Position numbers and translations under genes: made by a program
Part shown: positions 2,937-59,273 of the stretch, piece by piece
Position numbering within the stretch: the first letter of the stretch is position 1
How the letters are laid out: every line of letters starts with the position of its first letter
Assembly (NCBI GenBank): GCA_943368745.1
Contig: CALRLP020000004.1
Location: 17,617 to 81,616, forward strand
Reading direction: 5' to 3'
Length of the DNA: 64,000 nt
DNA from: Maricaulis salignorans
Lineage (GTDB): Bacteria; Pseudomonadota; Alphaproteobacteria; Sphingomonadales; Sphingomonadaceae
Notes under the pieces: model-generated
Told to the model about the DNA's origin: nothing
Seen by the model: only the letters and a program-made list of their open reading frames with translations
Databases searched by the model: none

Positions 2937-4115
2937 TTATGCAGCTTGCTGCTTAATCGTTTCCATCAATGTCTTCATTTTATCGATGGTATAGAGCATG
3001 CTCTGCATTTTGCTTTTGTCGCCCAGAAGATCGCTCACGCGGGCATCAATCTTGCTTTCAACCTTCGCGGACACATTATCCTTGGCCTTGTCCCGCATGG
3101 CTTCCAACTGGCCGAGATAGCCAAAGGGCGCGGTGAACGAAATTGTCCCCAAGCCAACCGTTTTGTCGTCGCCGCTATAATGGAAAACCGCACAGGCTTT
3201 CAGGTTGATCGTATCGCCATCAATGCTGTCAACACCAAGATACAGTGTCGCGGTCACATGCCCGCCATAAATGATTTTGATGGGGATTATTTTTCCGCAC
3301 GATCCGGTATCTGAACCCTTCATCTCACGCAGCCGCTTGACGACATTCAGCGGTTGGCGATCATCGTCGGACCATTGCAACCATGACGCATACACAAAGC
3401 GCTCTTCAAGCTTGTTTTTGTCGAGGCCCTTTGAGCTAAGTCCGGAGGCAACGGACTTCATGTTCTTTTTACAATAATCTAGCTCTGTCGTGATCGTCGT
3501 TGTCTGGTCACCGTCTAGTGAACCGCATACACCGGAGATGAACGGGTAAAATTGCAACTGCAGTCCCATTTGAATGGTACGGTCATGCCCGTCATAGCTT
3601 GGCGTCGCCCGGGCGTAGCGTTGAAATAAGGTTATTCCATTGTCTTTAATTTCATTGAACTTTTCAATCCGCTGCTGGAGCTTGGCGGCCCGGCTGACCA
3701 AAAGGCAGAATTTGTCCCGAACACGCTCATATCGGGCTTCCTGTTCGTCAGACAAAGCAACGCCTTTTGCCTTAAGCGTATTATACGCGACCTGTGAGGC
3801 ACATAAATCGCTTGCGTAGCCGATTTTCTGCGCCGCAGTCTTGCCGGTGAAGTTCACTGGATTAGGAACTACGTTCACATTGTCTTGGTAGAGATTGCCA
3901 CCATTGTTGAACGACATATTGTAAACCACATCGTCGCTACCGGTCGCACTGGTCACCCCGAAATAGCCTTGATAAGACGCATTCATGTCGTCGACACTGG
4001 CCTCATAATCGGCATACGCACTGGCGTTCGCTCCAATGTCCTGCGCAAACGCCGTTACAGGAGCTCCGATAAGTAACGAACCAATAAGAGCTTTAAATAA
4101 TTTTCTATTTTTCAT
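2937..4115 (-). CDS. Hypothetical Sec-exported protein (392 aa, 6 Cys)
   Basis: Long ORF with signal peptide ending A-F-A at residue 24; no family recognised; visibly AT-richer than flanking genes. Confidence 0.8.
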   Translation of the reverse strand: MKNRKLFKALIGSLLIGAPVTAFAQDIGANASAYADYEASVDDMNASYQGYFGVTSATGSDDVVYNMSFNNGGNLYQDNVNVVPNPVNFTGKTAAQKIGYASDLCASQVAYNTLKAKGVALSDEQEARYERVRDKFCLLVSRAAKLQQRIEKFNEIKDNGITLFQRYARATPSYDGHDRTIQMGLQLQFYPFISGVCGSLDGDQTTTITTELDYCKKNMKSVASGLSSKGLDKNKLEERFVYASWLQWSDDDRQPLNVVKRLREMKGSDTGSCGKIIPIKIIYGGHVTATLYLGVDSIDGDTINLKACAVFHYSGDDKTVGLGTISFTAPFGYLGQLEAMRDKAKDNVSAKVESKIDARVSDLLGDKSKMQSMLYTIDKMKTLMETIKQQAA

Positions 4116-4206
4116 AATATTTTCCCTGACAAATCGTCATTAATTCACTTTTTTGGTCCGTATATTGTCTGTGTGCGCCGCGAACGGGTGATATTACAAT
4201 CGCGCA

Positions 4207-5658
4207 TCAATTTAACTTGGACGGTAATAGCATTTGGAACGACGGCGCTGGCGTTTCGGAGGGGCGTCGTCCGTATTGCTTGGACGGAGACAAAGTCGCG
4301 CCAAACAATATTTGACTCCATTCCGAAGGGCTGCGCGACGCCCGGTTATCGCTATTGGGTGCACGCGCTGTAAGCACGACAAGCACCTCACGACGGTCGA
4401 CTGACAGGCCCCGCCGCGAAAGCCCTGGTATCGCAACCGGCGTTATGGAGCGGCTGTTCGTGCTCCGCCGATTCAGCGAGTCTCCCGATCCGACGACGAT
4501 CGCCTTGCCATAAGGCAGTTTGACCGACACCTCGACATGGGTTTTGTCCGTTTCGAGGATGCTTGCGCCACGCCCGACATTCACCGATGACTGCCCTGTA
4601 ATGTTCGACATTTCCAAAACGACGTCGAGATCGACGTCGTTTGAACCAATTCGCTGCGGAGTTACTTCAAGCGTTACACCCACATCGCGTTCGATTGGCT
4701 GGCTGCGATCCGAAAGGGGAACGATTAGCACAGATCCGCCTTCGGCAAATTTGGACTTCTTGCCTTCGCGGGCAAGAACAACCGGGCTTGCTTCAAGCGT
4801 GACGTGCGATTGGCTGTTCGACGCCAGATTAAGCGAATAATTGATGGCTGGTGCGGTGATCGTGAGGTTGCCTGTCTTCGTGTCTGTGCTGTCCGCTGCC
4901 AAATCGTAACTGTAATTGAGTAACGTTCCGCCGAACTGCACAGAGAGCCCATCGAGCAGGTTCAGTCCGCGATTTCCCGATGAGCCGCGGGTTTCTCGGA
5001 TCAGATAAGCTTCGATGACTACGCCTGGTCCGTCGTCACCCGCAGCGCTGGCTGCTGCGTTGCCTGTGCCGGAGTCAGCCGGCGGAATCATGGGTGCGCT
5101 GGAGGATGAGGGAGACGTTGACGCAGGGCGCCAGCCGGTACCTGCAAACGCAGCGTCCAAAAAGTTTAATCCAACCATATCCAAGTCACCGGTTCGGTCT
5201 GCGCGCTCCAAAGCAGCCCGGGCGAATTCCGGTTCCCCCGCACGATATGCCAGCAATGCCATGGGCACAGCCATTGGCCCAGCTTCGCCGCGTCGTTCAA
5301 TCGCTTGCGCCATCTGGTTCATGGCCTCGCGAACATTGCCAAGCTGGTATGACGTTAATGCGGCCCCGGCGAGCGGCTCCCAAAGATCCGGCGCCAATCG
5401 GGCAGCGGTTTGAAAACCGCTTAACGCCATTTCAAGGTCGCCCCGCGTGACCGATGGTCCGTTTAGGAAATTCATAGCCGTGGCGTAATGCGCGGCAGCC
5501 GAAAGTGGGCTGTTGCGGACTGACGCGAAGCTGTCCGCTTCCGCTGTACGGCCAACATTCTTCATCGCGCCCTGCATATGGACAGGTGCACAGCCTGAAC
5601 TGGCCAGTGCCACTAAAACCACAAGGCCCAAGGGCCGCTGTAAGAAACGCAATGGCAT
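4207..5658 (-). CDS. Lipoprotein with TPR-like helices fused to a secretin core domain
   Basis: Lipobox-like ALASSG-C23; helical repeats ~55-170; secretin-type motifs VVIEAYLIRE, ASPVVLAREG, RDVGVTLEVTP, VKLPYGKAIVVG, IPGL...REVLVVLT. Confidence 0.75.
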   Translation of the reverse strand: MPLRFLQRPLGLVVLVALASSGCAPVHMQGAMKNVGRTAEADSFASVRNSPLSAAAHYATAMNFLNGPSVTRGDLEMALSGFQTAARLAPDLWEPLAGAALTSYQLGNVREAMNQMAQAIERRGEAGPMAVPMALLAYRAGEPEFARAALERADRTGDLDMVGLNFLDAAFAGTGWRPASTSPSSSSAPMIPPADSGTGNAAASAAGDDGPGVVIEAYLIRETRGSSGNRGLNLLDGLSVQFGGTLLNYSYDLAADSTDTKTGNLTITAPAINYSLNLASNSQSHVTLEASPVVLAREGKKSKFAEGGSVLIVPLSDRSQPIERDVGVTLEVTPQRIGSNDVDLDVVLEMSNITGQSSVNVGRGASILETDKTHVEVSVKLPYGKAIVVGSGDSLNRRSTNSRSITPVAIPGLSRRGLSVDRREVLVVLTARAPNSDNRASRSPSEWSQILFGATLSPSKQYGRRPSETPAPSFQMLLPSKLN

Positions 5659-5933
5659 ATGTCCCCCGCTGAATGCACTGTAACTTTGTCATGCAGGGAG
5701 GTGATGATGCCGCTTGGCTATTATACCCCAATCCCCGCTGTGCCGCGGCATGGCAGAACAAAATGGAGTAATGCAAACTTACAATTGTGAAATCTGTGTC
5801 ACATTCACATTAGAATTGATGTTATTTGTTATTTTATAGTTGATTACTATTCAGGCAACGGGCCGGACAAATAGCATCCAGTGGGGACGGCATAGCCTTG
5901 GTTCACCGCATCTGATGCAAATGAATCAATCTG

Positions 5934-6023
5934 TGGCGGAGACGGTGGGATTCGAACCCACGATAGAGTCACCCCTATACACACTTTCCAGGCGTGCGCC
6001 TTCGACCACTCGGCCACGTCTCC
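5934..6023 (-). tRNA. tRNA-Ser(GGA)
   Basis: 90 nt; acceptor stem GGAGACG/CGTCTCC, anticodon loop CTGGAAA, long variable arm, GTTCGAATC T-loop, encoded CCA. Confidence 0.97.
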
Positions 6024-28090: not shown

Positions 28091-28540
28091 ATGGGCAAGA
28101 AAATCCTGATTGTCGAAGACGAGTTTATCGTCGCCCTGAATTTGCGCCAGACCTTAGCGGCGCTGGGATTTGACACGCTGGGAATAGCGCCGGACGCGCG
28201 AACAGCATTTAAACTCGCAGACCAAAAACCCGATATTGCGCTCGTCGATGTCAATTTGCGGGATGGCGAAACTGGTCCGGGCATCGGGCGCAGGCTTGCG
28301 CATGAATATGGGGCCGTCGTATTATTTGTTACGGCAAATCCTGCGCGACTTGGTGATGGCATCGAAGGAACTCTTGGTTGCCTATGTAAACCTGTGGGCC
28401 ATGAGGAGGTTCAGGAGGCACTCGATTTCCTGCAGGACTTTCAAGACAATCCAGCAGCGACCCCGCCGCCAGCCCTGCGTATGTTTCGGAATGACAATGA
28501 CACTCGTGTGTCAGGCCGCGAAATGGAGCGCCACGGCTGA
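28091..28540 (+). CDS. Single-domain response regulator
   Basis: ILIVEDE, ALVDVNL, FVTAN, LCKP receiver motifs. Confidence 0.9.
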   Translation: MGKKILIVEDEFIVALNLRQTLAALGFDTLGIAPDARTAFKLADQKPDIALVDVNLRDGETGPGIGRRLAHEYGAVVLFVTANPARLGDGIEGTLGCLCKPVGHEEVQEALDFLQDFQDNPAATPPPALRMFRNDNDTRVSGREMERHG

Positions 28541-28542
28541 CT

Positions 28543-29994
28543 CTATAAATGCTCGGACGGAACGGTCATGATAACTTGAAGCCCCTCGCGATTCCAGAGC
28601 CGTTCAATTGTACCGCCAAGCTGGCTGGCAATGCCAATTTCAGAAAGCTGCGTTCCAAAGCCGGATCGTTCGGGAGTTAGGGGAACTTCTAGGCCGCCTG
28701 ACTCCGTCCAACGGATGACGACCTGTTCAGCCTGCATATCCGTCACAATATGCACTTCGCCCTCAGGCTTTGCCAATGCGCCATATTTCACAGCATTTGT
28801 GGCCAGTTCGTGGATGACCAAAGCGAGCGGCGTAGCGCTGCGTTCACTTACCGACACGTCCGTGCCGCTGATATGGCACCGGACCCTGCCGTCCATCTCA
28901 TAAGGCATCAAAATTTCTTGGATCAGCCCATGTAACTTAGTGAAATCGCGACCAGGATCAGAATAAGCGCTGTGTGGCCGCGCAAAGTTATGCGCTCGAC
29001 CCAGGGCGGAAATGCGGCCAGCCAGTTGCTTTGCAAACTTTGCCGACGACACATCCGCTGGTGTCGACAGCCCGATCAGTCCGGCAACAACCGCAAAGAT
29101 ATTTTTGATACGGTGGCTAAGCTCCCGGCTCATCAATTCGGTTCGTTCAGCAATCAACTTGCTCTCGTGGATATCCGTGCAAGTGCCAATCCAGCGCAAT
29201 ATTTGCCCCTTGTCGTCGCGCACGGGCAATGCGCGACCTAAGGTCCAGCGAAACTCTCCGCTATGGTGGCGCAAGCGATATTCGATTTCATAATCTTCGC
29301 CCGTCGCCACGGCGTGCCGCCATTTTGCAAACGCCTCTTCGCGATCATCAGGGTGAAACACGCCGTTCCACCCATCGCCATCGGTTGAACCATATGCCAT
29401 TCCGGTGAATTCATACCACCGGGCATTAAAATAATCATGCGCCCCATCTGGCTTGGTTGACCACACCATCTGCGGCAGCGCATCGGTCAACGCTTTGAAC
29501 TTGGCTTCACTCACCAGCAGAGCTTCTTTCGCGCTCAGCCCGCTCTCATATTCCGAATTGGTGCCAATCCACCGCACGATTTCATTATTTTTGCCCAGCA
29601 CAGGCACAATACGCGTCAGAAACTGGCGAAAAATGCCGTCCGCACCGCGCAATGGAAATACCATTTCAAACGCGTTGCCGTTTGCAATCGACCGTTTCCA
29701 TTTTTCAAGGACCTTGGACAACTCGAGCGGATCGTGAACACTTTGCCAGCCCCAACCTTCCATCGACTTGGGCGTCGACCCGCAATAGTCATGCCAGCGT
29801 CTGTTGTACCAATATATATAGCCGTCGCCCCGCGCTATCCAGCACAGCGCAGGTATATTATCCGCCAGTAAACGAAAATCTGCGTCGCTTGGCTGAACCG
29901 GTTTATCCGATGACAGTAATTCAGGCGCGACACTGGGTGTCCGCCAATAATCGTGCTCGACATCGTTCGCTAATTTTGGCCATTTATAGATCAT
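28543..29994 (-). CDS. Cytoplasmic PAS-PAS HWE histidine kinase
   Basis: Two PAS-type domains; ELSHRIKN H-box; HELATNAVKYGAL; RWTESGG. Confidence 0.92.
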   Translation of the reverse strand: MIYKWPKLANDVEHDYWRTPSVAPELLSSDKPVQPSDADFRLLADNIPALCWIARGDGYIYWYNRRWHDYCGSTPKSMEGWGWQSVHDPLELSKVLEKWKRSIANGNAFEMVFPLRGADGIFRQFLTRIVPVLGKNNEIVRWIGTNSEYESGLSAKEALLVSEAKFKALTDALPQMVWSTKPDGAHDYFNARWYEFTGMAYGSTDGDGWNGVFHPDDREEAFAKWRHAVATGEDYEIEYRLRHHSGEFRWTLGRALPVRDDKGQILRWIGTCTDIHESKLIAERTELMSRELSHRIKNIFAVVAGLIGLSTPADVSSAKFAKQLAGRISALGRAHNFARPHSAYSDPGRDFTKLHGLIQEILMPYEMDGRVRCHISGTDVSVSERSATPLALVIHELATNAVKYGALAKPEGEVHIVTDMQAEQVVIRWTESGGLEVPLTPERSGFGTQLSEIGIASQLGGTIERLWNREGLQVIMTVPSEHL

Positions 29995-30133
29995 GCGTGT
30001 TTGTCGGTTCTTTCAGATGGCGTCGACATTTTCCAAAAATGCCAGAGGCCCGTTCCATCGTATGACAGATACGCTGCCCAAATTGATATGCCGCAGGTAT
30101 ATTCGCAGCTTTGGCATTTCGGGAGGCTGAACG

Positions 30134-30158
30134 GAAACAAACCACAGCGCCATGCGTT
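30134..30158 (+). promoter_or_regulatory. EcfG-type promoter motif
   Basis: GAAAC-N16-CGTT 33 nt before ATG 30192. Confidence 0.6.
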
Positions 30159-30191
30159 CTATTTTCGCAACAACCTCTAGGAGACGTCATC

Positions 30192-30647
30192 ATGGAAGCC
30201 CGTCATTACGACATCGAAACAGTGAACCAACTCATCAAAACAACGATCGACAGCGTAGATGGATATCGGTCCGCTGCCGAAGCCGCGGACAGCCAGCAAT
30301 TTCAGTCAATTTTTTTCGAACGCGCGAATGAACGGCAGCAGGTTGCCGATCAATTACGCAATCATGTGCGTTCGCTTGGTGGCGATCCCGAAGATGATGG
30401 CTCGCTCGCCGCGGGCGCACACCGCATGTTTATGAGCTTACGCGACGCGATAACGGGTTCAGACGACCAAGCAGTGGTCGCAGAAGTCGAACGTGGCGAA
30501 GATTATATTAAAGCCAAATTCGAAGCAGCTTTGGAAGATGGGAACCTTGGAATGGAAACGCGCACGATGATTAGCCAGTGCTATGATTCGGTAAAATCGG
30601 GCCATGACCAAATGCGTGATTTGAAGAACGGCATGCGCGCGGGCTAA
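30192..30647 (+). CDS. PA2169/DUF2383 family four-helix-bundle stress protein
   Basis: LIKTTIDSVDGY, HRMFMSL, EVERGED motifs; RBS AGGAG. Confidence 0.88.
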   Translation: MEARHYDIETVNQLIKTTIDSVDGYRSAAEAADSQQFQSIFFERANERQQVADQLRNHVRSLGGDPEDDGSLAAGAHRMFMSLRDAITGSDDQAVVAEVERGEDYIKAKFEAALEDGNLGMETRTMISQCYDSVKSGHDQMRDLKNGMRAG

Positions 30648-30681
30648 GGCAACGTCGGCGGGGATTCCCGTCGGACTGTTG

Positions 30682-30728
30682 AAAACGAAACCTCGTCAGT
30701 TGATCGCTCTGGCAGGGTTTTGTTTTTT
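30682..30728 (+). terminator. Intrinsic terminator after the PA2169-family gene
   Basis: Imperfect stem AAAACGAAACCTCGTCAG/CTGGCAGGGTTTTGTTTT ending in a T-run. Confidence 0.55.
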
Positions 30729-30745
30729 GTCCCGTCTGCACAACG

Positions 30746-30862
30746 AAAAACACCCCGGCACGCGGCCGAGGTGTTCAAGGTGCTGGTCTACGGGGGGGGG
30801 AGGGCGACCAGCAGGGTAAACTATATTTCGCGAACCTAAGCGCGCAAATATATCGTTTAGAT
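30746..30862 (-). ncRNA. Candidate EcfG-dependent sRNA (~117 nt) with C-rich loop, GsrN-like architecture
   Basis: Consensus EcfG promoter upstream; 5' hairpin (30818-30858); 8-bp stem UGCUGGUC/GACCAGCA with loop GCCCUCCCCCCCCCGUA; intrinsic terminator 30746-30775; 5' end estimated. Confidence 0.7.
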
Positions 30863-30867
30863 GGGTA

Positions 30868-30892
30868 AACGTCGGTCTACGCACTTTGTTCC
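30868..30892 (-). promoter_or_regulatory. Consensus EcfG promoter
   Basis: GGAAC-N16-CGTT, starting 7 nt after the phyR stop. Confidence 0.8.
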
Positions 30893-30899
30893 CAAAAAA

Positions 30900-31682
30900 T
30901 TATGCAACTTCATAATTAATATCGATTTCGCGATGCATCAGCAGTGCTTGGCCAATGGTTGCGATGACCGTTTCGGGTTCAAATGGCTTAGTAATCAAAT
31001 ATGTGGGTTCAGGACGCTCGCCCGTTAAAAGCCTTTCCGGGAACGCCGTAATGAAAATCACCGGCACAGTTTGTTCCGCCAAAATATCCTTTACCGCGTC
31101 GATACCGCTCGAACCGTCGGCGAGGCTGATGTCAGCCAAGACCAGTTCAGGCCGTTCATCGCGTGCCTTTGCAACCGCTTCTGCACGTGTTCGTACAATT
31201 GCGATCGCTTCATGCCCCAGGTTTTCGACGATCTGTTTGATATGCAATGCAATGATCGATTCATCTTCAATGATGAGCACGCGCGCAGCAAGCGCGTCTT
31301 CGATGGCGCTACGCGCGGCAACAACATGGCTGCGTACGTCGGCTGCCGAAATGCCCAATATCTTGGCAACTTCATCGGCCTTAAATCCCTCGACCGTAGA
31401 CAAAAGCAGGCTTTGACGGCGCTTAACTGGAAATTCAGCGATGACACCGCTGCGGCCCCGCGATTCGAGGGGCGCGATCATGTCGCTGTTCCAGATGCGG
31501 TGAAATGTTCTGAACAACTCCGTCTTTACCGGTACTGCGTCATCCCATTCTTCGGGTGCTTCGAGCAACGCTTCGAGCGTTTCCCGGACTGCTGCATCTC
31601 CCAATGTCTGTGATCCCGTCAGGGCACGTGCGTAACGTCGTAGGTATGGCAATTGCGATGCCAGCTGCTGCCTAAATGACAT
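30900..31682 (-). CDS. phyR: Anti-anti-sigma factor / response regulator PhyR
   Basis: N-terminal sigma-like domain (LPYLRRYARALTGSQ) plus C-terminal receiver (IIEDE, LADISLADGSSG, FITAFPERLLTGERPEP, ITKPF). Confidence 0.96.
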   Translation of the reverse strand: MSFRQQLASQLPYLRRYARALTGSQTLGDAAVRETLEALLEAPEEWDDAVPVKTELFRTFHRIWNSDMIAPLESRGRSGVIAEFPVKRRQSLLLSTVEGFKADEVAKILGISAADVRSHVVAARSAIEDALAARVLIIEDESIIALHIKQIVENLGHEAIAIVRTRAEAVAKARDERPELVLADISLADGSSGIDAVKDILAEQTVPVIFITAFPERLLTGERPEPTYLITKPFEPETVIATIGQALLMHREIDINYEVA

Positions 31683-31709
31683 GATTACTCCCTTTGTTAT
31701 TCGATGCTA

Positions 31710-31746
31710 TACGTTTGAAACGCCTTTTTGTTCCCTGCGACGGAAC
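31710..31746. promoter_or_regulatory. Back-to-back EcfG-type promoter elements between phyR and nepR
   Basis: Minus strand GGAAC-N16-CGTA (31710-31734); plus strand GGAAC at 31742-31746 with a poor -10. Confidence 0.55.
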
Positions 31747-31894
31747 ATTATCGCGCGTCGCGACTTAACAGCATATGAAAATGCATCAGTTTCAGCCAAA
31801 TACATGGTTTTAAACCATGGGAATTCCTGCAGGCTATGGTCACCCGAAAGCAGTCAGATTTCCCGATGCAACAAGCACCTGGGAGGGGCAATCA

Positions 31895-32083
31895 GTGAGA
31901 CGCAATAAGGGCAAGCAACCGCTTAACGCGATTGGTGATGATATGGATTCTGAATTTGACCCTTTAACTGCCGCACTGCGTCAAATGCACGACAGTGTTG
32001 CCAATGAACCCATACCTGACGACTTTTTGAACCTGTTGGACATGATTGACGCAAAGATGTCGGCGTCGAAGAAGTTCCAGTGA
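31895..32083 (+). CDS. nepR: Anti-sigma factor NepR
   Basis: LRQMHDSVANEPIPDDFLNLL motif; GTG start after RBS GGAGGG; overlaps ecfG start. Confidence 0.88.
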   Translation: MRRNKGKQPLNAIGDDMDSEFDPLTAALRQMHDSVANEPIPDDFLNLLDMIDAKMSASKKFQ

Positions 32084-32700
32084 GTAGCTCCGCCACGGAG
32101 CCAGTTCCGAAGTCCGAAAAGTCGGATGCTTCGGCTGACTTTCGCGCACAAATGGTCGCGATCATCCCGTCGCTGCGTGCGTTCGCGCGTGGCCTGTGCG
32201 GAAATCGCGAGCTTGCAGACGATCTTGCCCAAGAGGCGATGATGCGGGCTTGGGCTGCCCATGAAAGCTTCACCCCAGGCACCAACTTTCGTGCCTGGAT
32301 GTTCATGATATTGCGCAACCAGTTTTACACGACGATGCGCAAAAATTCGCGCATGACAAGCTGGGATCCGGAGGCAGCAGAGCGACTGCTGGTCGAGGCC
32401 CCGCCGCAACAGCACCACATCCATATGAGCGATGTTGAAAAGGCGCTGCAAAAGTTGCCGGCTGAACAGCGCGAAATATTGATGATCGTCGGTGCAGGTG
32501 GCGCCAGTTATGAAGAGGCAGCGGAAATTACGGGCTGTGCCATCGGAACAGTCAAAAGCCGGCTTGCACGTGGCCGCGTTGCCTTGGCGACGCTTATCAA
32601 CGGTACCGATGCGCCAGCGCGCGTGAAAGCGCCGCCGCGCAAGCGTGCGAACGAACCTGTAAACGACACGCCACATCCAAAGCCAAGCACATTACCATAA
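32080..32700 (+). CDS. ecfG: General stress ECF sigma factor EcfG (SigT/RpoE2 type)
   Basis: IPSLRAFARGLCG, ADDLAQE, PGTNFRAWMFMILRNQF, GTVKSRLARGR; divergent from phyR, fused to nepR operon. Confidence 0.93.
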   Translation: MSSSATEPVPKSEKSDASADFRAQMVAIIPSLRAFARGLCGNRELADDLAQEAMMRAWAAHESFTPGTNFRAWMFMILRNQFYTTMRKNSRMTSWDPEAAERLLVEAPPQQHHIHMSDVEKALQKLPAEQREILMIVGAGGASYEEAAEITGCAIGTVKSRLARGRVALATLINGTDAPARVKAPPRKRANEPVNDTPHPKPSTLP

Positions 32701-32707
32701 ATCGCAT

Positions 32708-34429
32708 TTGCTGAGAGCTGCATTGGCATTTTTCCGACCTTTGACATTGCGGCACGGTTTGATCCTGATCGTGTTCGCAGCCTTGCTACCGGTCGTCGTC
32801 GCGAGTGTTATTCAGGGCTTTTCTGCGCTCAACAGCACGCGCGATATGGCGATGGGACGCCTCAGTGCCCACGCGAGCACGATTGCGGAGCGGCAACGTG
32901 ATCCCTTCATTATTGCGCAACATCTCTTACTGGCGTTGGCTACCAACGCCGACGTTACAAAAATGTCGGGTGGATGTGACGCTGCCCTGCGCGCTTCGCT
33001 TAGCAACTATCGGCCGGTGACCAACCTCGCGCGAACGAGTGCCGATGGTGTCTTACGGTGTTCTGTGCTTCCACATGAAAGGGAAATCAATTTAGCCAAT
33101 GAGGGTTGGTGGCAGCGGGGCGTTCGTGCCAAAGGCATGACCATCACTAAAGCGCCCATTTATGCGCCCCTTGCCCAGCGTAACGTTCTATTCCTCATTC
33201 TTCCGCTACGGACAGCAGACGGGCAGCAAGACGGAACGCTGACGGCGGCGATTGACATAGACTATTTACGTAATGCCCTGTTGAAGGCGCAGGAAGGTAA
33301 GGCAGGCGCAGTCGCCATCGTTACCCGCGATGCGGTTATCGTTGCGCAAGGCAAGCAACGGCTGACCTTCGCGCCCAACCTTGATGCGCGTCAGGATGAG
33401 GCACAGTTAGCGAAAGGGCGCGACGGGACAGAGTGGCTGTACGCCTTCCACAAGCTTTATAGCTCCGAACTCTTTGTCGTGTACGCTGAACCCCGCGTAC
33501 GGGTGATGGCGACCGCTGTCTCGCAAGTGCGTGCAAGCATATTCCTGCCGCTGGTGTCGATCTTGCTTGCTTCACTGGCAATCTGGATCGGGACCAATCG
33601 CCTTGCACTGGTATGGCTTCGCGCATTGCGAAAAGTTGCTGGACGCTTTGCCGGCGGAGACTTCACCGGTGACCGCGCCCGATTCCAAAACGCACCAGAG
33701 GAAATTGCCGCACTCAGCGCCGATTTGCATAGCATGGCAGATGTCATTCACCGGCGAAATAACGATCTGACACATGCCCTTGAGGCCAAAAGCTTGCTCA
33801 CGCGTGAGGTGCACCATCGGGTCAAAAACAACCTTCAAATCATCAACAGTCTACTCACGCTGCAATCCGGACGCGTGCAGGAAGGGGCCGCTAAAGAGGT
33901 ATTGGCGCAGACACGGGCACGTATAAGCGCCTTGGCCCTGATCCACAGGCTCTTATATGAACAGGATAATGGCTACGACCGCGGCGAAGTTGCTATCGAC
34001 AATCTGATGGCGGAACTTTGCACCCAATTGCGCGGGGCAAGTCGCACCTCGCCAAAGGTGGAGTTGACGTGCCACGCCAGCGATTTTCCGGTGCCGGTCG
34101 ATTACGCCGTTCCGCTGACATTGTTTGTCGTAGAAGCCGTCACCAACGCATTCCGCCATGCATTTGCCGCCGGATCCACAGGCGCTGTGACATTGACGTT
34201 TCACTTGGACGGCGACCATGCGATTTTGGACATTTCCGACAATGGTCAGGGCTATGTGGTGAACGACAAAAGCGGCCAAATGGGAATGGAACTGATGCGG
34301 GGATTTGCCACGCAGGTCGATGGTAAGTTGGACATTGCCAGCAATGTCGGCACCGGAACACGTGTGGTTCTGACATTCCTATTGCCACATATGCCCAAAT
34401 CAAACCGCAGCGGTGCGATCACAGCATAG
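32708..34429 (+). CDS. Membrane sensor histidine kinase (HisKA_2 type, periplasmic sensor plus HAMP-like region)
   Basis: Two TM helices; EVHHRVKNNLQII; EAVTNAFRHAF; DNGQG, GTGT. Confidence 0.9.
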   Translation: MLRAALAFFRPLTLRHGLILIVFAALLPVVVASVIQGFSALNSTRDMAMGRLSAHASTIAERQRDPFIIAQHLLLALATNADVTKMSGGCDAALRASLSNYRPVTNLARTSADGVLRCSVLPHEREINLANEGWWQRGVRAKGMTITKAPIYAPLAQRNVLFLILPLRTADGQQDGTLTAAIDIDYLRNALLKAQEGKAGAVAIVTRDAVIVAQGKQRLTFAPNLDARQDEAQLAKGRDGTEWLYAFHKLYSSELFVVYAEPRVRVMATAVSQVRASIFLPLVSILLASLAIWIGTNRLALVWLRALRKVAGRFAGGDFTGDRARFQNAPEEIAALSADLHSMADVIHRRNNDLTHALEAKSLLTREVHHRVKNNLQIINSLLTLQSGRVQEGAAKEVLAQTRARISALALIHRLLYEQDNGYDRGEVAIDNLMAELCTQLRGASRTSPKVELTCHASDFPVPVDYAVPLTLFVVEAVTNAFRHAFAAGSTGAVTLTFHLDGDHAILDISDNGQGYVVNDKSGQMGMELMRGFATQVDGKLDIASNVGTGTRVVLTFLLPHMPKSNRSGAITA

Positions 34430-56734: not shown

Positions 56735-56964
56735 CGCCGGAGCAGTAGGATTTATCAGCGGTTAATGACAGGCATTGTATACACCCAACCCTCACAGTCC
56801 CGAGCATCCACTTTTAATGCAAACTCGACTGGACTGTGCTCTATATACGAGCAACAGCACATTGCGCTTCGGCACTGATCGAAGCGGCTTGCCCTGCCGG
56901 CTCTAACCGGGGGGCTCTGGGTGGTGGCAGCAGGCATTGGGCCTGCTGCGATCGGAGACCACCT

Positions 56965-57390
56965 ATGTTAAAATCGTCAAGCCGCAAGAAGGAGGCCACC
57001 GCTGTCGTCGCCCAGCTTATTGATATGTCGTTAGCGGAGCTTCGTGCAGAATGGCAACGCCGATACGGCCCGCCGCCTAAGCATCGAGCATCAGATTTGT
57101 TGCGGCGCGTTCTGGCTTGGCGCATCCAAGCCGATGCTTTCGGCGATCTCGATGCTGCGACGCGGCGGATACTCTCTAAGGAGCAAAATGTGCTGCGCCC
57201 TTCTGCCCAGCCAGGGATGCGATTGGCGCGTGAATGGGCAGGCCTTCGCTACGAGGTGGTCGTGATCGAAAACGGCGTGGTCTTTGAGGGGCAGACCTTT
57301 GGAAGCCTTTCAGAGGTTGCGCGGCATATCACAGGCCGCCGATGGAACGGACCGCGCTTCTTTGGCCTGCGGGGTGTCAACGTACGATGA
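56965..57390 (+). CDS. DUF2924 family protein
   Basis: LAWRIQADAFGDL, PGMRLAREWAG..YEV, SLSEVARHITGRRWNGPRFFGL. Confidence 0.92.
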   Translation: MLKSSSRKKEATAVVAQLIDMSLAELRAEWQRRYGPPPKHRASDLLRRVLAWRIQADAFGDLDAATRRILSKEQNVLRPSAQPGMRLAREWAGLRYEVVVIENGVVFEGQTFGSLSEVARHITGRRWNGPRFFGLRGVNVR

Positions 57391-59015
57391 CCGAGGCAAA
57401 GACAAAGTTCCGCTGTGCTATCTACACCCGCAAATCAACCGATGAAGGCCTTGAGCAGAACTTCAACAGTCTAGACGCACAGCGTGCCGCCTGCGAGGCG
57501 TATATCCAAAGCCAAGCTGGCGAAGGCTGGGAATGCCTGCCACAGCTTTATGACGATGGTGGATGGTCGGGTGGCAATATGGAGCGACCTGCTCTTAAAC
57601 GGCTTCTTGACGAAATCTCCAAAGGCCAGGTGGATATAGTCGTGGTCTACAAGGTCGATCGATTGACCCGAAGCCTAACAGACTTTGCCCGCATTGTTGA
57701 AACGTTCGATAACAATAAAGCTTCATTCGTGAGCGTGACCCAAGCATTCAATACAACCAACAGTATGGGCCGGCTTACGCTCAATGTCCTCTTGTCCTTT
57801 GCGCAGTTCGAACGCGAGGTCACAGGCGAGCGAATCAGGGACAAGATTGCCGCATCCATGGCACGGGGTATCTGGATGGGCGGGAGCATCCCTAAAGGCT
57901 ATGACCTCGGAGACCGTAGGCTGGATGTAAACCCGATCGAGGCGGAACAGGTCCGCTATATTTTTAAGCGCTATCTTGAGCTAAACTCCCTCATCTCTCT
58001 CGCCAAAGATCTTGCCCAAAACAACATCCGATCCAAACGATGGACAGCGCGAAGCGGCAAGGAACGAGGTGGATATCTTTATGACCCAAGCGGGCTCTCT
58101 TATCTGCTGCGCAATCGTATCTACTTGGGCCAAATAACCCACAAGGATAAGTCTTATCCCGGCGAGCATGATGCCATCATTGAGGTTGACCTGTTCCAGC
58201 AAGTGCAAGAACGACTTGCTGCGAACCACCATAAGTTTGTGAATAGGCAAACACGCTCTGCAGCCTGCCCGCTTCACAACAAAATCTTTGATGCCCAAGG
58301 TAGACCCATGCGGCCAAACTTTGGTTATGGGCGCGGCAAAAAGATCTACCGTTATTATGTGAGCGACACATTGCTACCGCTTGGCCGGCTCAAAGCTGGA
58401 AGTTCAACTCCCCTTGGCGACAGGCTGTCGGCAGAACGTACCGAACGATTTTTGCAGGATAGGCTTCGCAGTCTTAAGCCCGACGGTCCTGACTTCGAGA
58501 TCTTCGAGGCCATTGAGAGGGTAATGTTCTCATCCAACAAACTGACCGTGACATTGCGAGTTGCAGAGTTGATTGGCACTAACGCATGTGAAGACACGCT
58601 ACTCGCCAAAGCACAGCAGATCGATCCGGCTGCGAAAATAGGTGATGATGATCTCTTACTGTCTCTTGATGCGCGGCCGGTGCGACGCGGCAAGTCGGTG
58701 CGGTCCATCGACTGCGTCTTGGATGCGCCAGAACAAAGAAGAGTGTTAGCGGAACTGGTACGAACCTCGCATCGCAAGCTGACAGAGTTGAACGCCTCAC
58801 CACTTCATCCCGAAATGCACGAGCACATGTCGACGCCCATCAACGAATGGACACGCGAGCGCATTGCGATAGGACTGTTGGCACCAGATATCCAGAAAGC
58901 CCTGCTTACTGGAAAAGCACCTTTAGGGCTTTACCCGGAGAAACTGCTGTCTCGGGATATGCCTCTGGACTGGAAAGGTCAGAGGAAGTTTTTAGGCATG
59001 CAGCATGCTACCTAG
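57387..59015 (+). CDS. Large serine recombinase
   Basis: CAIYTRKS catalytic Ser, NSLDAQR, YDDGGWSGG, YKVDRLTRS, GRLTLNVLLSFAQFEREV, NRIYLG; ATGA overlap with DUF2924. Confidence 0.95.
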   Translation: MTEAKTKFRCAIYTRKSTDEGLEQNFNSLDAQRAACEAYIQSQAGEGWECLPQLYDDGGWSGGNMERPALKRLLDEISKGQVDIVVVYKVDRLTRSLTDFARIVETFDNNKASFVSVTQAFNTTNSMGRLTLNVLLSFAQFEREVTGERIRDKIAASMARGIWMGGSIPKGYDLGDRRLDVNPIEAEQVRYIFKRYLELNSLISLAKDLAQNNIRSKRWTARSGKERGGYLYDPSGLSYLLRNRIYLGQITHKDKSYPGEHDAIIEVDLFQQVQERLAANHHKFVNRQTRSAACPLHNKIFDAQGRPMRPNFGYGRGKKIYRYYVSDTLLPLGRLKAGSSTPLGDRLSAERTERFLQDRLRSLKPDGPDFEIFEAIERVMFSSNKLTVTLRVAELIGTNACEDTLLAKAQQIDPAAKIGDDDLLLSLDARPVRRGKSVRSIDCVLDAPEQRRVLAELVRTSHRKLTELNASPLHPEMHEHMSTPINEWTRERIAIGLLAPDIQKALLTGKAPLGLYPEKLLSRDMPLDWKGQRKFLGMQHAT

Positions 59016-59199
59016 AATGCGCCTAATATCATAAGTGTCACGGGCTATCGCGCGCAGAGACTGAGGGTCAAATCAAGGCGATTTGGCCCTCTTTTGGTCT
59101 CCGCAGAGACTTTAGAGCAGCGGCACTAAGCCCGGAGGGGCCCAGAAAGGCGCCGTTTCTGGGCTGAAGATGTCGTTGGGGTTTTATCTGTGAGGTGTA

Positions 59200-59273
59200 T
59201 GGAGGCCCGAGCCGGAATCGAACCGGCGTGCAAGGATTTGCAGTCCTCTGCGTCACCACTCCGCCATCGGGCC
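59200..59273 (-). tRNA. tRNA-Cys(GCA)
   Basis: 74 nt; GGCCCGA/TCGGGCC acceptor stem, CTGCAAA anticodon loop, GTTCGATTC T-loop, CCA end. Confidence 0.97.

Follow-up and report, generated by a model that had tools for sequence, protein, structure and literature searches.

Secretins are parts of four large envelope-spanning machines, the T2SS, the T3SS, the T4P and Tad pili, and the filamentous phage system. To our knowledge, it has always been assumed that a motor-driven filament or needle opens them from below, and we know of no characterised secretin that works other than with an inner-membrane ATPase-driven machine. Such machines operate with pIV, GspD, PilQ and InvG, and the secretins of the Tad, T2SS and T4P systems are normally encoded within the operon of their system. 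The TPR-lipoprotein pilotins PilF/PilW and TadD are stand-alone outer-membrane lipoproteins with TPR repeats that bind their own secretin. Liposecretins include HxcQ of the P. aeruginosa Hxc T2SS, and BfpB, TcpC and MshL of the type IVb and MSHA pili.

In the Tad pilus of Pseudomonas aeruginosa (PDB 8odn), the groove of TadD binds the C-terminal residues of the secretin RcpA (PMC10499894). HxcQ-type liposecretins are described, in the part of PMC12475490 that cites Viarre et al. (2009), as self-piloting by means of an N-terminal lipid anchor, with no separate pilotin. The Slam proteins of the Type XI system combine a TPR periplasmic domain with a DUF560 barrel (PMC8406197, PMC5449769). Searches of the literature turned up no report of a stand-alone, orphan or TPR-fused secretin, and none of a secretin in a bufferin cluster.

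The 64 kb window, that is, the whole stretch of DNA analysed here, is from a freshwater Sphingorhabdus and encodes a 483-residue protein that combines elements of these systems in a single chain. The features of the locus are as follows.

2937–4115, minus strand: exported partner protein of 392 amino acids, with a Sec signal peptide ending AFA, followed by QD, and six invariant cysteines
4116–4206, minus strand: intergenic spacer of 91 nt between the secretin and partner genes, with AGGGA ahead of the partner ATG and no terminator-like hairpin
4207–5658, minus strand: TPR-lipoprotein-secretin fusion gene, 483 amino acids, whole open reading frame including the stop codon
5590–5658, minus strand: lipoprotein signal peptide, residues 1–23, with R4 and R8 in the n-region, a hydrophobic core, A-S-S-G-C23 and Ala at +2
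5134–5526, minus strand: helical TPR-like domain, residues ~45–175 (~130 amino acids), from AF2 helices, Foldseek and a PDB sequence profile search
5029–5133, minus strand: linker rich in Ser, Pro, Gly and Ala, residues 176–210, disordered (pLDDT <40)
4354–5028, minus strand: secretin core, residues 211–435, opening with the long strand VVIEAYLIRETRGSSG, from Pfam, PHROG and AF2 strands (212–432)
4210–4353, minus strand: conserved C-terminal tail, residues 436–483 (W..LFG...YG.RPSE.P.P..LLP), from alignments and AF2
5659–5933, minus strand: AT-rich upstream region with one sigma-70-like site, TTGCCT-16-TAAAAT, 5858 to 5831
5934–6023, minus strand: tRNA-Ser(GGA), co-oriented, 275 nt upstream of the secretin gene, from ARAGORN

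The open reading frame of the secretin gene begins with ATG and is preceded by the ribosome-binding site GGGGGA. The lipobox Cys23 (SSGC, followed by A) is invariant in the alignments of 20 and of 55 homologous sequences, and by eye the N-terminus fits what we take to be the PROSITE lipobox pattern PS51257. The protein thus carries the lipobox of liposecretins and is predicted to be lipidated. The AF2 model of the TPR-like domain comprises seven helices (residues 54–172, pLDDT ~80–92) that match TPR crystal structures in Foldseek and TPR proteins in the PDB sequence profile search. Matches to Pfam TPR_2/TPR_9 are weak (19 bits, under the cut-off), and the domain contains an invariant motif, F-x-T-A-x-R-L-A-P-D-x-W-x-P. 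The linker corresponds to a gappy, unconserved alignment block that varies in both length and sequence.

Pfam Secretin (PF00263) matches residues 281–431 over model positions 3–165 of 169, with 39.4 bits against a gathering cut-off of 27.5. The alignment to the phage pIV family (PHROG 1012) is longer, pairing residues 213–432 with profile positions 180–398 of 403, and starts roughly at the presumed onset of the pIV secretin domain. The top 40 Foldseek matches of the AF2 model in the PDB are all secretins (E 3e-10 to 6e-6), with low TM-scores, as expected when a monomer model is compared with an oligomeric barrel; the monomer model itself is only moderate overall (pLDDT 64). Profile and model together indicate that the core has the secretin fold, that of a double-walled barrel subunit. 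Alignments, AF2, Pfam and Foldseek thus bear out the sequence-only reading, which had proposed a lipobox at Cys23, TPR-like repeats, a linker and a secretin core, and all the secretin motifs it quoted are present in the translation.

The chain ends in a tail in which three residues never vary (F452, P466, P470) and six hardly do (L451, L456, Y462, G463, R465, P472). AF2 models this segment at pLDDT 83–88 despite its being a tail. By analogy to the C-terminus of RcpA, which sits in the TadD groove (PMC10499894), it is a candidate for binding in the TPR groove.

A Pfam scan of the 483-residue protein found neither Secretin_N nor any other N-domain family even at E ≤ 0.1, in keeping with the earlier claim that it has no room for N0–N3, nor did it contain the AMIN/N0/N3 or VirB9-like/BON N-terminal domains of PilQ and RcpA/CpaC. 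The NCBIfam model of GspD (TIGR02517) reaches 19 bits, its cut-off being 351, the NCBIfam model of PilQ has no match at E ≤ 0.1, and Pfam finds no DUF560. The PilW model (TIGR02521) gives 13.5 bits where the cut-off is 154; the TPR domain is fused to the secretin here and does not stand alone. The best-scoring secretin in the PDB sequence search is RcpA, with a weak match (E 0.005, 18.5 bits, 70 residues).

The secretin core is homologous to those of pIV, GspD, PilQ and InvG according to Pfam, PHROG 1012 and Foldseek. Those proteins, however, possess N0 and one to three N-ring domains, whereas the 483-residue protein aligns only over the core, and the phage morphogenesis genes found near pIV (pI/pXI) are missing around its gene. 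Like the RcpA-TadD pair, the 483-residue protein joins a small secretin core to a TPR lipoprotein, and RcpA is also a Foldseek match, but here the two form one polypeptide, with no VirB9-like N domain and no tad/flp genes nearby. The N-terminal lipobox is shared with liposecretins, of which BfpB is a Foldseek match; liposecretins nevertheless keep N0/N3-type domains and full T2SS/T4bP operons and have no TPR, and the 483-residue protein is the opposite on each point. The likeness to Slam is functional, with a TPR part and an outer-membrane channel beside Sec-delivered cargo, no dedicated ATPase, and cargo genes that vary between loci. Slam is a monomeric DUF560 barrel and not a lipoprotein, whereas the secretin core has an unrelated fold, and TPR_Slam gives one faint match among 82 members of the wider clade described below (1/82). 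The resemblance is one of logic, not ancestry. In the synthase-dependent exopolysaccharide exporters AlgK-AlgE, PelB, BcsC and PgaA, too, an outer-membrane channel is coupled to a TPR scaffold, which in AlgK is lipidated, but these have porin-type barrels, polysaccharide substrates and glycosyltransferase operons, none of which occurs at the secretin locus.

That the window holds no secretion or phage machinery, as first noted, was upheld gene by gene over the 64 kb for T2SS (gspC-M), T4P, Tad, T3SS and phage genes. Nor do secretion, pilus or phage genes lie within 6–10 kb of about 45 related loci in two tiers, and in none of these is the homologue embedded in a Tad, T2SS or T4P locus. The secretin locus offers no evident energy source for transport.

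The gene is not the one-off it had seemed. It has 64 homologous clusters and belongs to a small family confined to Alphaproteobacteria. This family nests in a larger, unnamed clade of the same architecture, which has roughly 600 members and, grouped at 50% identity, at least 350 protein clusters. All 82 clade members tested have Secretin, none of the 82 has Secretin_N and at least 45 have TPR; a lipobox is present in 90 of 126 (71%). Most secretin genes of the family outside Sphingorhabdus close an operon that also encodes a LuxR response regulator (RR) and a 7TMR-DISM histidine kinase (HK), beside a gene for a small exported protein with four cysteines. Rhizorhabdus wittichii RW1 (ABQ67169.1) is one of the genomes that carry the secretin gene. 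The order RR-HK-secretin, with gaps of 18–150 nt, was counted in 14 distinct non-Sphingorhabdus family loci (L007, L009-L012, L015, L016, L018/19/20, L028/29, L031-L034, L037), where a divergent exported-protein gene uses a common promoter region. Tier-2 loci have an AraC regulator or none, and no 7TMR-DISM kinase lies near the Sphingorhabdus secretin loci, the window included.

The exported neighbours differ from locus to locus. A family of 150-residue exported proteins with four cysteines (cl12) is found at 8 distinct loci and additionally at L045, and divergent cl12-like copies are discernible by eye at L029. Ricin_B_lectin proteins of 1094–1759 residues and Tectonin proteins of ~820 residues stand beside the secretins of L042/43, L044 and L047, and a bufferin RiPP operon lies directly upstream of the secretin in three loci (L004, L013, L014). 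Three of the sampled loci (L041, L048, L007) have no obvious exported neighbour. Unrelated exported neighbours at other loci are the pattern expected of cargo. TPR-only matches in Chelativorans (L017, L039, L040) were considered as stand-alone pilotins and rejected, as they are truncated remnants. A 223-residue fragment on an 837-nt contig (P0144) bears a precomputed HATPase_c label and is probably a chimera or a kinase neighbour.

The exported 392-residue partner is encoded 91 nt downstream of the window's secretin with no terminator-like site in the gap, as the sequence-only reading had stated; it is not the only co-oriented neighbour, the tRNA-Ser(GGA) gene having the same orientation. The partner matches no family in Pfam, NCBIfam, PHROGs or PADLOC. 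Its AF2 model is confident (pLDDT 78, pTM 0.76), compact and single-domain, with long terminal helices. No known fold could be assigned to it, the best PDB match having E 0.02 and TM <0.2 and BFVD giving no significant match; the weak, chance-level PDB matches were CapZ, fHbp and Der p 7. A profile search for remote relatives added only two Sphingopyxis-type clusters. The cl12 family was rejected as a homologue and is taken to be unrelated, given an hhalign probability of 1.5%.

Linkage of the partner to the secretin is close within one genus, and the expectation that the two would be conserved together was partly realized. The partner lies immediately downstream and co-oriented in 14 of the 14 Sphingorhabdus loci that reach far enough, in at least four flanking contexts, whereas most family members outside Sphingorhabdus are without it. 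Elsewhere, it is convergent with the TPR-secretin at two loci (L009, L031) and divergent at a third (L032); a divergent copy in L046 adjoins a tier-2 TPR-secretin that shares only 25% identity with that of the window. The partner thus adjoins TPR-secretins in four gene arrangements, an adjacency that survives inversions. Its sequence is conserved as much as that of the secretin or more (99% versus 94% in L002 and L024, and 85% versus 76% in L005).

We give about even chances to the view, drawn from sequence, that the protein is a self-piloting, stand-alone secretin which exports or displays neighbouring Sec-delivered proteins. The lack of an evident energy source, the absence of the partner from most family members and the three sampled loci with no obvious exported neighbour weigh against this view. 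Sec would export the protein, Cys23 would receive the lipid, and Lol transport would bring it to the outer membrane. The TPR domain would take the role of the separate pilotins TadD, PilF or PilW, and would probably bind the conserved C-terminal tail, either its own or that of an adjacent subunit, while the core would oligomerise into a gated secretin barrel. A pore that has no N0–N3 presumably cannot dock to an inner-membrane platform of the GspC or PilP type, and would thus be a stand-alone gate, independent of inner-membrane machinery encoded elsewhere. Its clients would be Sec-delivered, periplasm-folding proteins encoded beside it. In the window, the client would be the six-cysteine partner, released or displayed on the cell surface by the pore; in relatives, other exported proteins may fill this slot, and the module may be switched on by the LuxR/7TMR-DISM two-component system or by an AraC regulator.

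The adjacency of secretin and partner fits a cargo and an accessory subunit alike. The partner might instead stand in for the N domains as a ring, cap or gatekeeper in the periplasm, the real substrate being something else. BfpG, TcpQ, TsaP and RcpB/C are such accessory proteins of other secretins, and the tight, orientation-independent linkage, the high conservation and the compact model with long terminal helices all agree with this role, as does a secretin that itself has nothing periplasmic below the barrel. We nevertheless consider it unlikely: most members of the family and clade have no partner but unrelated neighbours instead (cl12, lectins, Tectonin), a replacement unusual for a structural subunit, and sequence and fold searches revealed no similarity of the partner to any known secretin accessory protein.

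The missing N domains and the gene neighbourhoods bear on two further explanations. It is improbable that a conventional Tad, T4P, T2SS or filamentous-phage system, with its genes at another place in the genome, uses the 483-residue protein as its outer-membrane pore, the neighbours then being coincidental or only co-regulated. All characterised secretins known to us serve such machines, and the best, albeit weak, secretin match in PDB sequences is the Tad protein RcpA; TadD-type pilotins, moreover, are TPR lipoproteins (PMC10499894). The 483-residue protein, however, has no N0/N3 or VirB9-like domains to reach an inner-membrane platform, no tad, gsp or pil gene lies near the ~45 loci of the two tiers, the loci have dedicated regulators of their own (RR-HK or AraC), and the GspD and PilQ models argue against it, as noted above. 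The kinase operons raise the prospect of a pore in envelope signalling, which would admit an external signal or large ligand to the 7TMR-DISM kinase at its periplasmic sensor domain, or inform the kinase about the state of the outer membrane, the small exported proteins being signals or regulated outputs. The 14 RR-HK-secretin operons and the promoter region shared with the divergent exported-protein gene speak for such a device. Such a kinase is missing near the Sphingorhabdus loci, that of the window among them, and tier-2 loci rely on AraC or have no regulator at all. The two-component system thus seems exchangeable, a regulator and not a mechanistic partner, and we regard signalling as likewise improbable.

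Returning to the self-piloting, stand-alone secretin, a broader generalization is advanced tentatively, as a possibility rather than an expectation: the TPR-liposecretins devoid of N domains may constitute an undescribed secretin-only pathway, in which Sec export and periplasmic folding are followed by passage through a cargo-gated secretin with no pseudopilus, ATPase or inner-membrane platform. Adjacent cargo genes would be interchangeable, namely the 392-residue family, cl12, the Ricin-B/Tectonin giants and possibly bufferin peptides. In this sizeable clade the periplasmic docking domains are gone, a pilotin-like lipoprotein module is fused instead, and the genes travel with exported proteins, not machine genes. 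If the proposal is true, a secretin can serve as a free-standing, substrate-gated exit, a new and simple outer-membrane route with a logic comparable to that of curli CsgG or Slam/T11SS. How a gated pore of 6–8 nm opens with no piston and no leaking would then become the question. It would also give several orphan protein families a function, and alphaproteobacteria a compact two-gene secretion cassette.

The upstream region 5659–5933 is conserved among related strains. The tRNA-Ser(GGA) beyond it is genomic context and no functional part of the secretin system. In S. rigui DSM 29050 (L001), which has a 96% identical secretin, tRNA-Ser is an integration site, and a repeat of the tRNA 3'-end flanks an 8.3-kb island; the repeat-bounded insert in S. 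rigui consists of a TetR gene and an autotransporter gene and is different from the secretin-partner pair. The pair itself was considered as a tRNA-bounded island and this was rejected, as the tRNA-Ser 3'-end repeat was not found beyond the pair in the window. In freshwater metatranscriptomes both genes were detected in related strains, only as fragments of each gene. Contigs from the RNA-labelled libraries X24 and X25, which may contain DNA, span the 91-nt spacer, and a metatranscriptome contig from X29 covers 5680–5832.

The reading frame proposed from the sequence alone, 4207..5658 (-), was confirmed; it encodes 483 aa from an ATG start with GGGGGA ahead, and the product is 96% identical to the homologue of S. 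rigui DSM 29050. The source of the window is a Sphingorhabdus of fresh water. The protein is laid out as follows:

Residues 1-23: lipoprotein signal peptide with R4, R8, a hydrophobic core, A-S-S-G-C23 and Ala at +2
Residues ~45-175: TPR domain of seven helices (pLDDT 80-92 in the AF2 model)
Residues 176-210: low-complexity linker, variable in length among homologues (pLDDT <40)
From residue 211: secretin core, recognized by Pfam Secretin, PHROG and Foldseek

Cys23, earlier described as lipobox-like, shows no variation in alignments covering 20 and 55 homologues. Residues ~45-175 resemble TPRs by profile and by fold (Foldseek), with the Pfam TPR models scoring under their cut-offs. HMM and structure searches agree on the secretin fold: Pfam Secretin scores 39.4 bits against a cut-off of 27.5 and covers model positions 3-165 of 169, and secretins (T2SS, T3SS, T4P, BfpB, RcpA, pIV) make up all of the best 40 Foldseek matches in the PDB. 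Positions 180-398 of the 403 in the phage pIV PHROG profile align with residues 213-432; the secretin domain of f1 pIV starts near residue 175. The claimed lack of N domains also held, as Secretin_N, AMIN, BON and STN are undetectable by Pfam scan and the protein has no space for one either. Within the secretin superfamily, to which it belongs, the 483-aa protein falls outside GspD, PilQ, RcpA, pIV and the known liposecretins.

Conservation is also seen in the final 45 residues (LFG...YG.RPSE.P.P), which the AF2 model gives a pLDDT of 83-88, an unusual value for a tail. TadD, the TPR lipoprotein of the Tad system, holds the C-terminal residues of the secretin RcpA in its groove (PMC10499894). 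By analogy, we infer that the tail would dock in the TPR groove, either of the same polypeptide or between neighbouring subunits. In contrast to TadD-RcpA, where pilotin and secretin are two proteins, the TPR lipoprotein module and the secretin here share one polypeptide.

This architecture recurs in a wider clade. Exhaustive HMMER searching of 1.84 billion representatives with a core-only profile gave only 601 matches at E <= 1e-3, 346 of them at E <= 1e-10, and the next matches after the family itself are 480-715 aa long and carry the core C-terminally. Secretin was found in all 82 clade relatives scanned and recognisable TPRs in at least 45, with Secretin_N or any other secretin N domain in none of the 82; a lipobox pattern lies within the first 70 residues of 90 of the 126 relatives checked. 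Their sources name them 'hypothetical' or 'TPR repeat protein', and no NCBIfam model reaches its cut-off. The TPR-secretin architecture is a clade-defining invention and no accident of one genome: a TPR lipoprotein module resembling a pilotin stands in for every periplasmic ring domain of the secretin. No report of stand-alone, orphan or TPR-fused secretins was found in the literature searched.

Directly downstream lies the gene of an exported partner:

2937..4115 (-): partner gene, 392 aa, start 91 nt 3' of the secretin gene

The co-oriented 91-nt gap is as the sequence-only reading described it, with no terminator-like hairpin found, and is spanned by contigs of two RNA-labelled libraries, both of which possibly contain DNA. 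Contigs of the freshwater metatranscriptomes X28 and X29 (85-99% identical) cover portions of both genes and reach ~5832 in the 5' leader, adjoining a predicted promoter at 5858-5831. The Sec signal peptide of the partner ends AFA|QD, six cysteines are invariant within Sphingorhabdus, and the AF2 model is confident (pLDDT 78, pTM 0.76). Scans of Pfam, NCBIfam, PHROGs and PADLOC gave no match to the partner, and neither the PDB nor BFVD contains a significant structural neighbour of it; its family is tiny (~80 clusters at 90% identity).

For the secretin family, word-indexed searching of 5.8 billion proteins gave only 64 clusters, each of them from Alphaproteobacteria (Sphingomonadales, Caulobacterales and a few others), and neighbour mapping of 40 retrieved loci revealed three recurrent contexts. 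Outside Sphingorhabdus, the secretin is the last gene of an operon, after a LuxR/GerE response regulator and a 7TMR-DISM histidine kinase (gaps of 18-150 nt), with one to four copies of cl12, a small exported 4-Cys protein of ~150 aa when mature, divergent from the response regulator. Homology of cl12 to the partner was rejected (hhalign probability 1.5%). At L029:3630-5184 and L034:3119-5094, three to four tandem cl12-like paralogues with the motif V-x-V-R-P-R-x(3,4)-C diverge from the response-regulator gene. In the second context, the partner follows the secretin in 14 of the 14 Sphingorhabdus loci long enough to show it, confirming co-conservation in this genus, within at least four variants of flanks (including tRNA-Ser...DUF885, tRNA-Thr... 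and bufferin operon...ahpCF). Partner homologues of 28-31% identity adjoin the secretin on the opposite strand in Sphingopyxis-type loci; a homologue is convergent with it in L009 and L031 and lies between kinase and secretin in L032. The third context is a co-oriented bufferin RiPP operon directly upstream of the secretin, comprising one or two DUF2282 precursors, an MbnB-like enzyme and DUF2063:

L004:7741-9644: bufferin operon
L013:7790-9944: bufferin operon
L014:7649-9947: bufferin operon, its stop overlapping the secretin start codon

These operons occur in two alphaproteobacterial orders and lack the usual fourth gene, DoxX; a published survey of bufferin clusters does not mention a secretin. 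The RiPP is of the copper-binding type.

Seven wider-clade gene contexts were retrievable, and T2SS, T4P, Tad and T3SS genes are absent from all seven. Three share a metagenomic module of AraC, a Ricin_B_lectin protein (1094-1759 aa), the TPR-secretin and a Tectonin protein (~820 aa):

L042:4713-12148 (L042/43): AraC module
L044:3250-14560: AraC module
L047:591-9668: AraC module

The two N-termini translated, those of the L042 lectin and the L044 Tectonin protein, bear signal peptides. In L045 a cl12 homologue is directly upstream of the TPR-secretin and co-oriented; in L046 a partner homologue 57% identical to that of the window diverges from a TPR-secretin that shares only 25% identity with the window's own. 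L041 and L048 were uninformative.

The partner and cl12, two unrelated exported families, each recur beside deeply divergent clade members, and giant exported lectin-like proteins adjoin still others. Regulators differ among loci (RR-HK, AraC or none), and varied regulators are usual for regulated secretion loci. Recurrent unrelated exported neighbours together with variable regulators favour a stand-alone export gate: a candidate self-piloted secretin releasing or displaying adjacent Sec-delivered proteins, a role to which we give about half of our confidence. No energy source for the proposed transport is evident. The neighbour pattern would be expected for dedicated cargo, as in Slam/T11SS (PMC8406197, PMC5449769). 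The partner is unlikely to be an accessory ring or gatekeeper of the pore, since unrelated exported families swapping beside divergent secretins would be less expected of a structural subunit.

All genes of the 64 kb window were named (housekeeping, catabolic, a PhyR-NepR-EcfG locus, TolC, and a serine recombinase beside tRNA-Cys). This gene-by-gene naming upheld the claimed absence of secretion, pilus and phage genes, with no pilin, prepilin peptidase, secretion ATPase, platform protein or phage morphogenesis gene among them. Service to a conventional machine encoded elsewhere seems improbable, and action in two-component signalling slightly more so. The TPR-secretin, as a candidate export gate, has genuine potential to establish a new route of secretion.

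A tRNA-Ser(GGA) is co-oriented with the secretin gene, 275 nt upstream. In L005:9578-9653 and L006:9628-9703 (other Sphingorhabdus), tRNA-Thr(CGT) replaces it, ~350 nt upstream of the secretin-partner pair. Location beside different tRNAs in different genomes therefore points to a two-gene module at tRNA-adjacent hot spots; neither an integrase nor a flanking repeat for the pair was found in the window. In S. rigui (L001:1573-10000) and a related MAG, an 8.3-kb insert, encoding a TetR regulator and an autotransporter of 2302 aa with TIG/Big_9 repeats, separates tRNA-Ser(GGA) from the secretin. A repeated tRNA 3' end (CTCCGCCACA) bounds this insert, which is missing from the window (5659-6023 compared).

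Elsewhere, the secretin homologue at L016:10001-11499, from an alphaproteobacterial MAG, is broken into three reading frames, by sequencing frameshifts or as a pseudogene. Chelativorans and related loci (L017:9890-10393, L039, L040) retain only the lipobox and first ~100 TPR residues (43-44% identity) before unrelated sequence; these fragments are decayed remnants of the secretin gene. In Rhizorhabdus wittichii (L018:11972-19508), proteins of 832 and 1045 aa without a Pfam hit and a caspase-like Peptidase_C14 protein lie 3' of the secretin. Within the window, the general-stress-response locus at 28091-34429 is complete, with PhyR, NepR, an EcfG-type sigma factor, a single-domain response regulator and HWE/HisKA_2 kinases. 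Beside tRNA-Cys(GCA), at 56836-59273, lie a large serine recombinase with Resolvase and Recombinase domains and a DUF2924 protein, probably the integration module of a mobile element; the catabolic genes between 47 and 56 kb may be part of that element.
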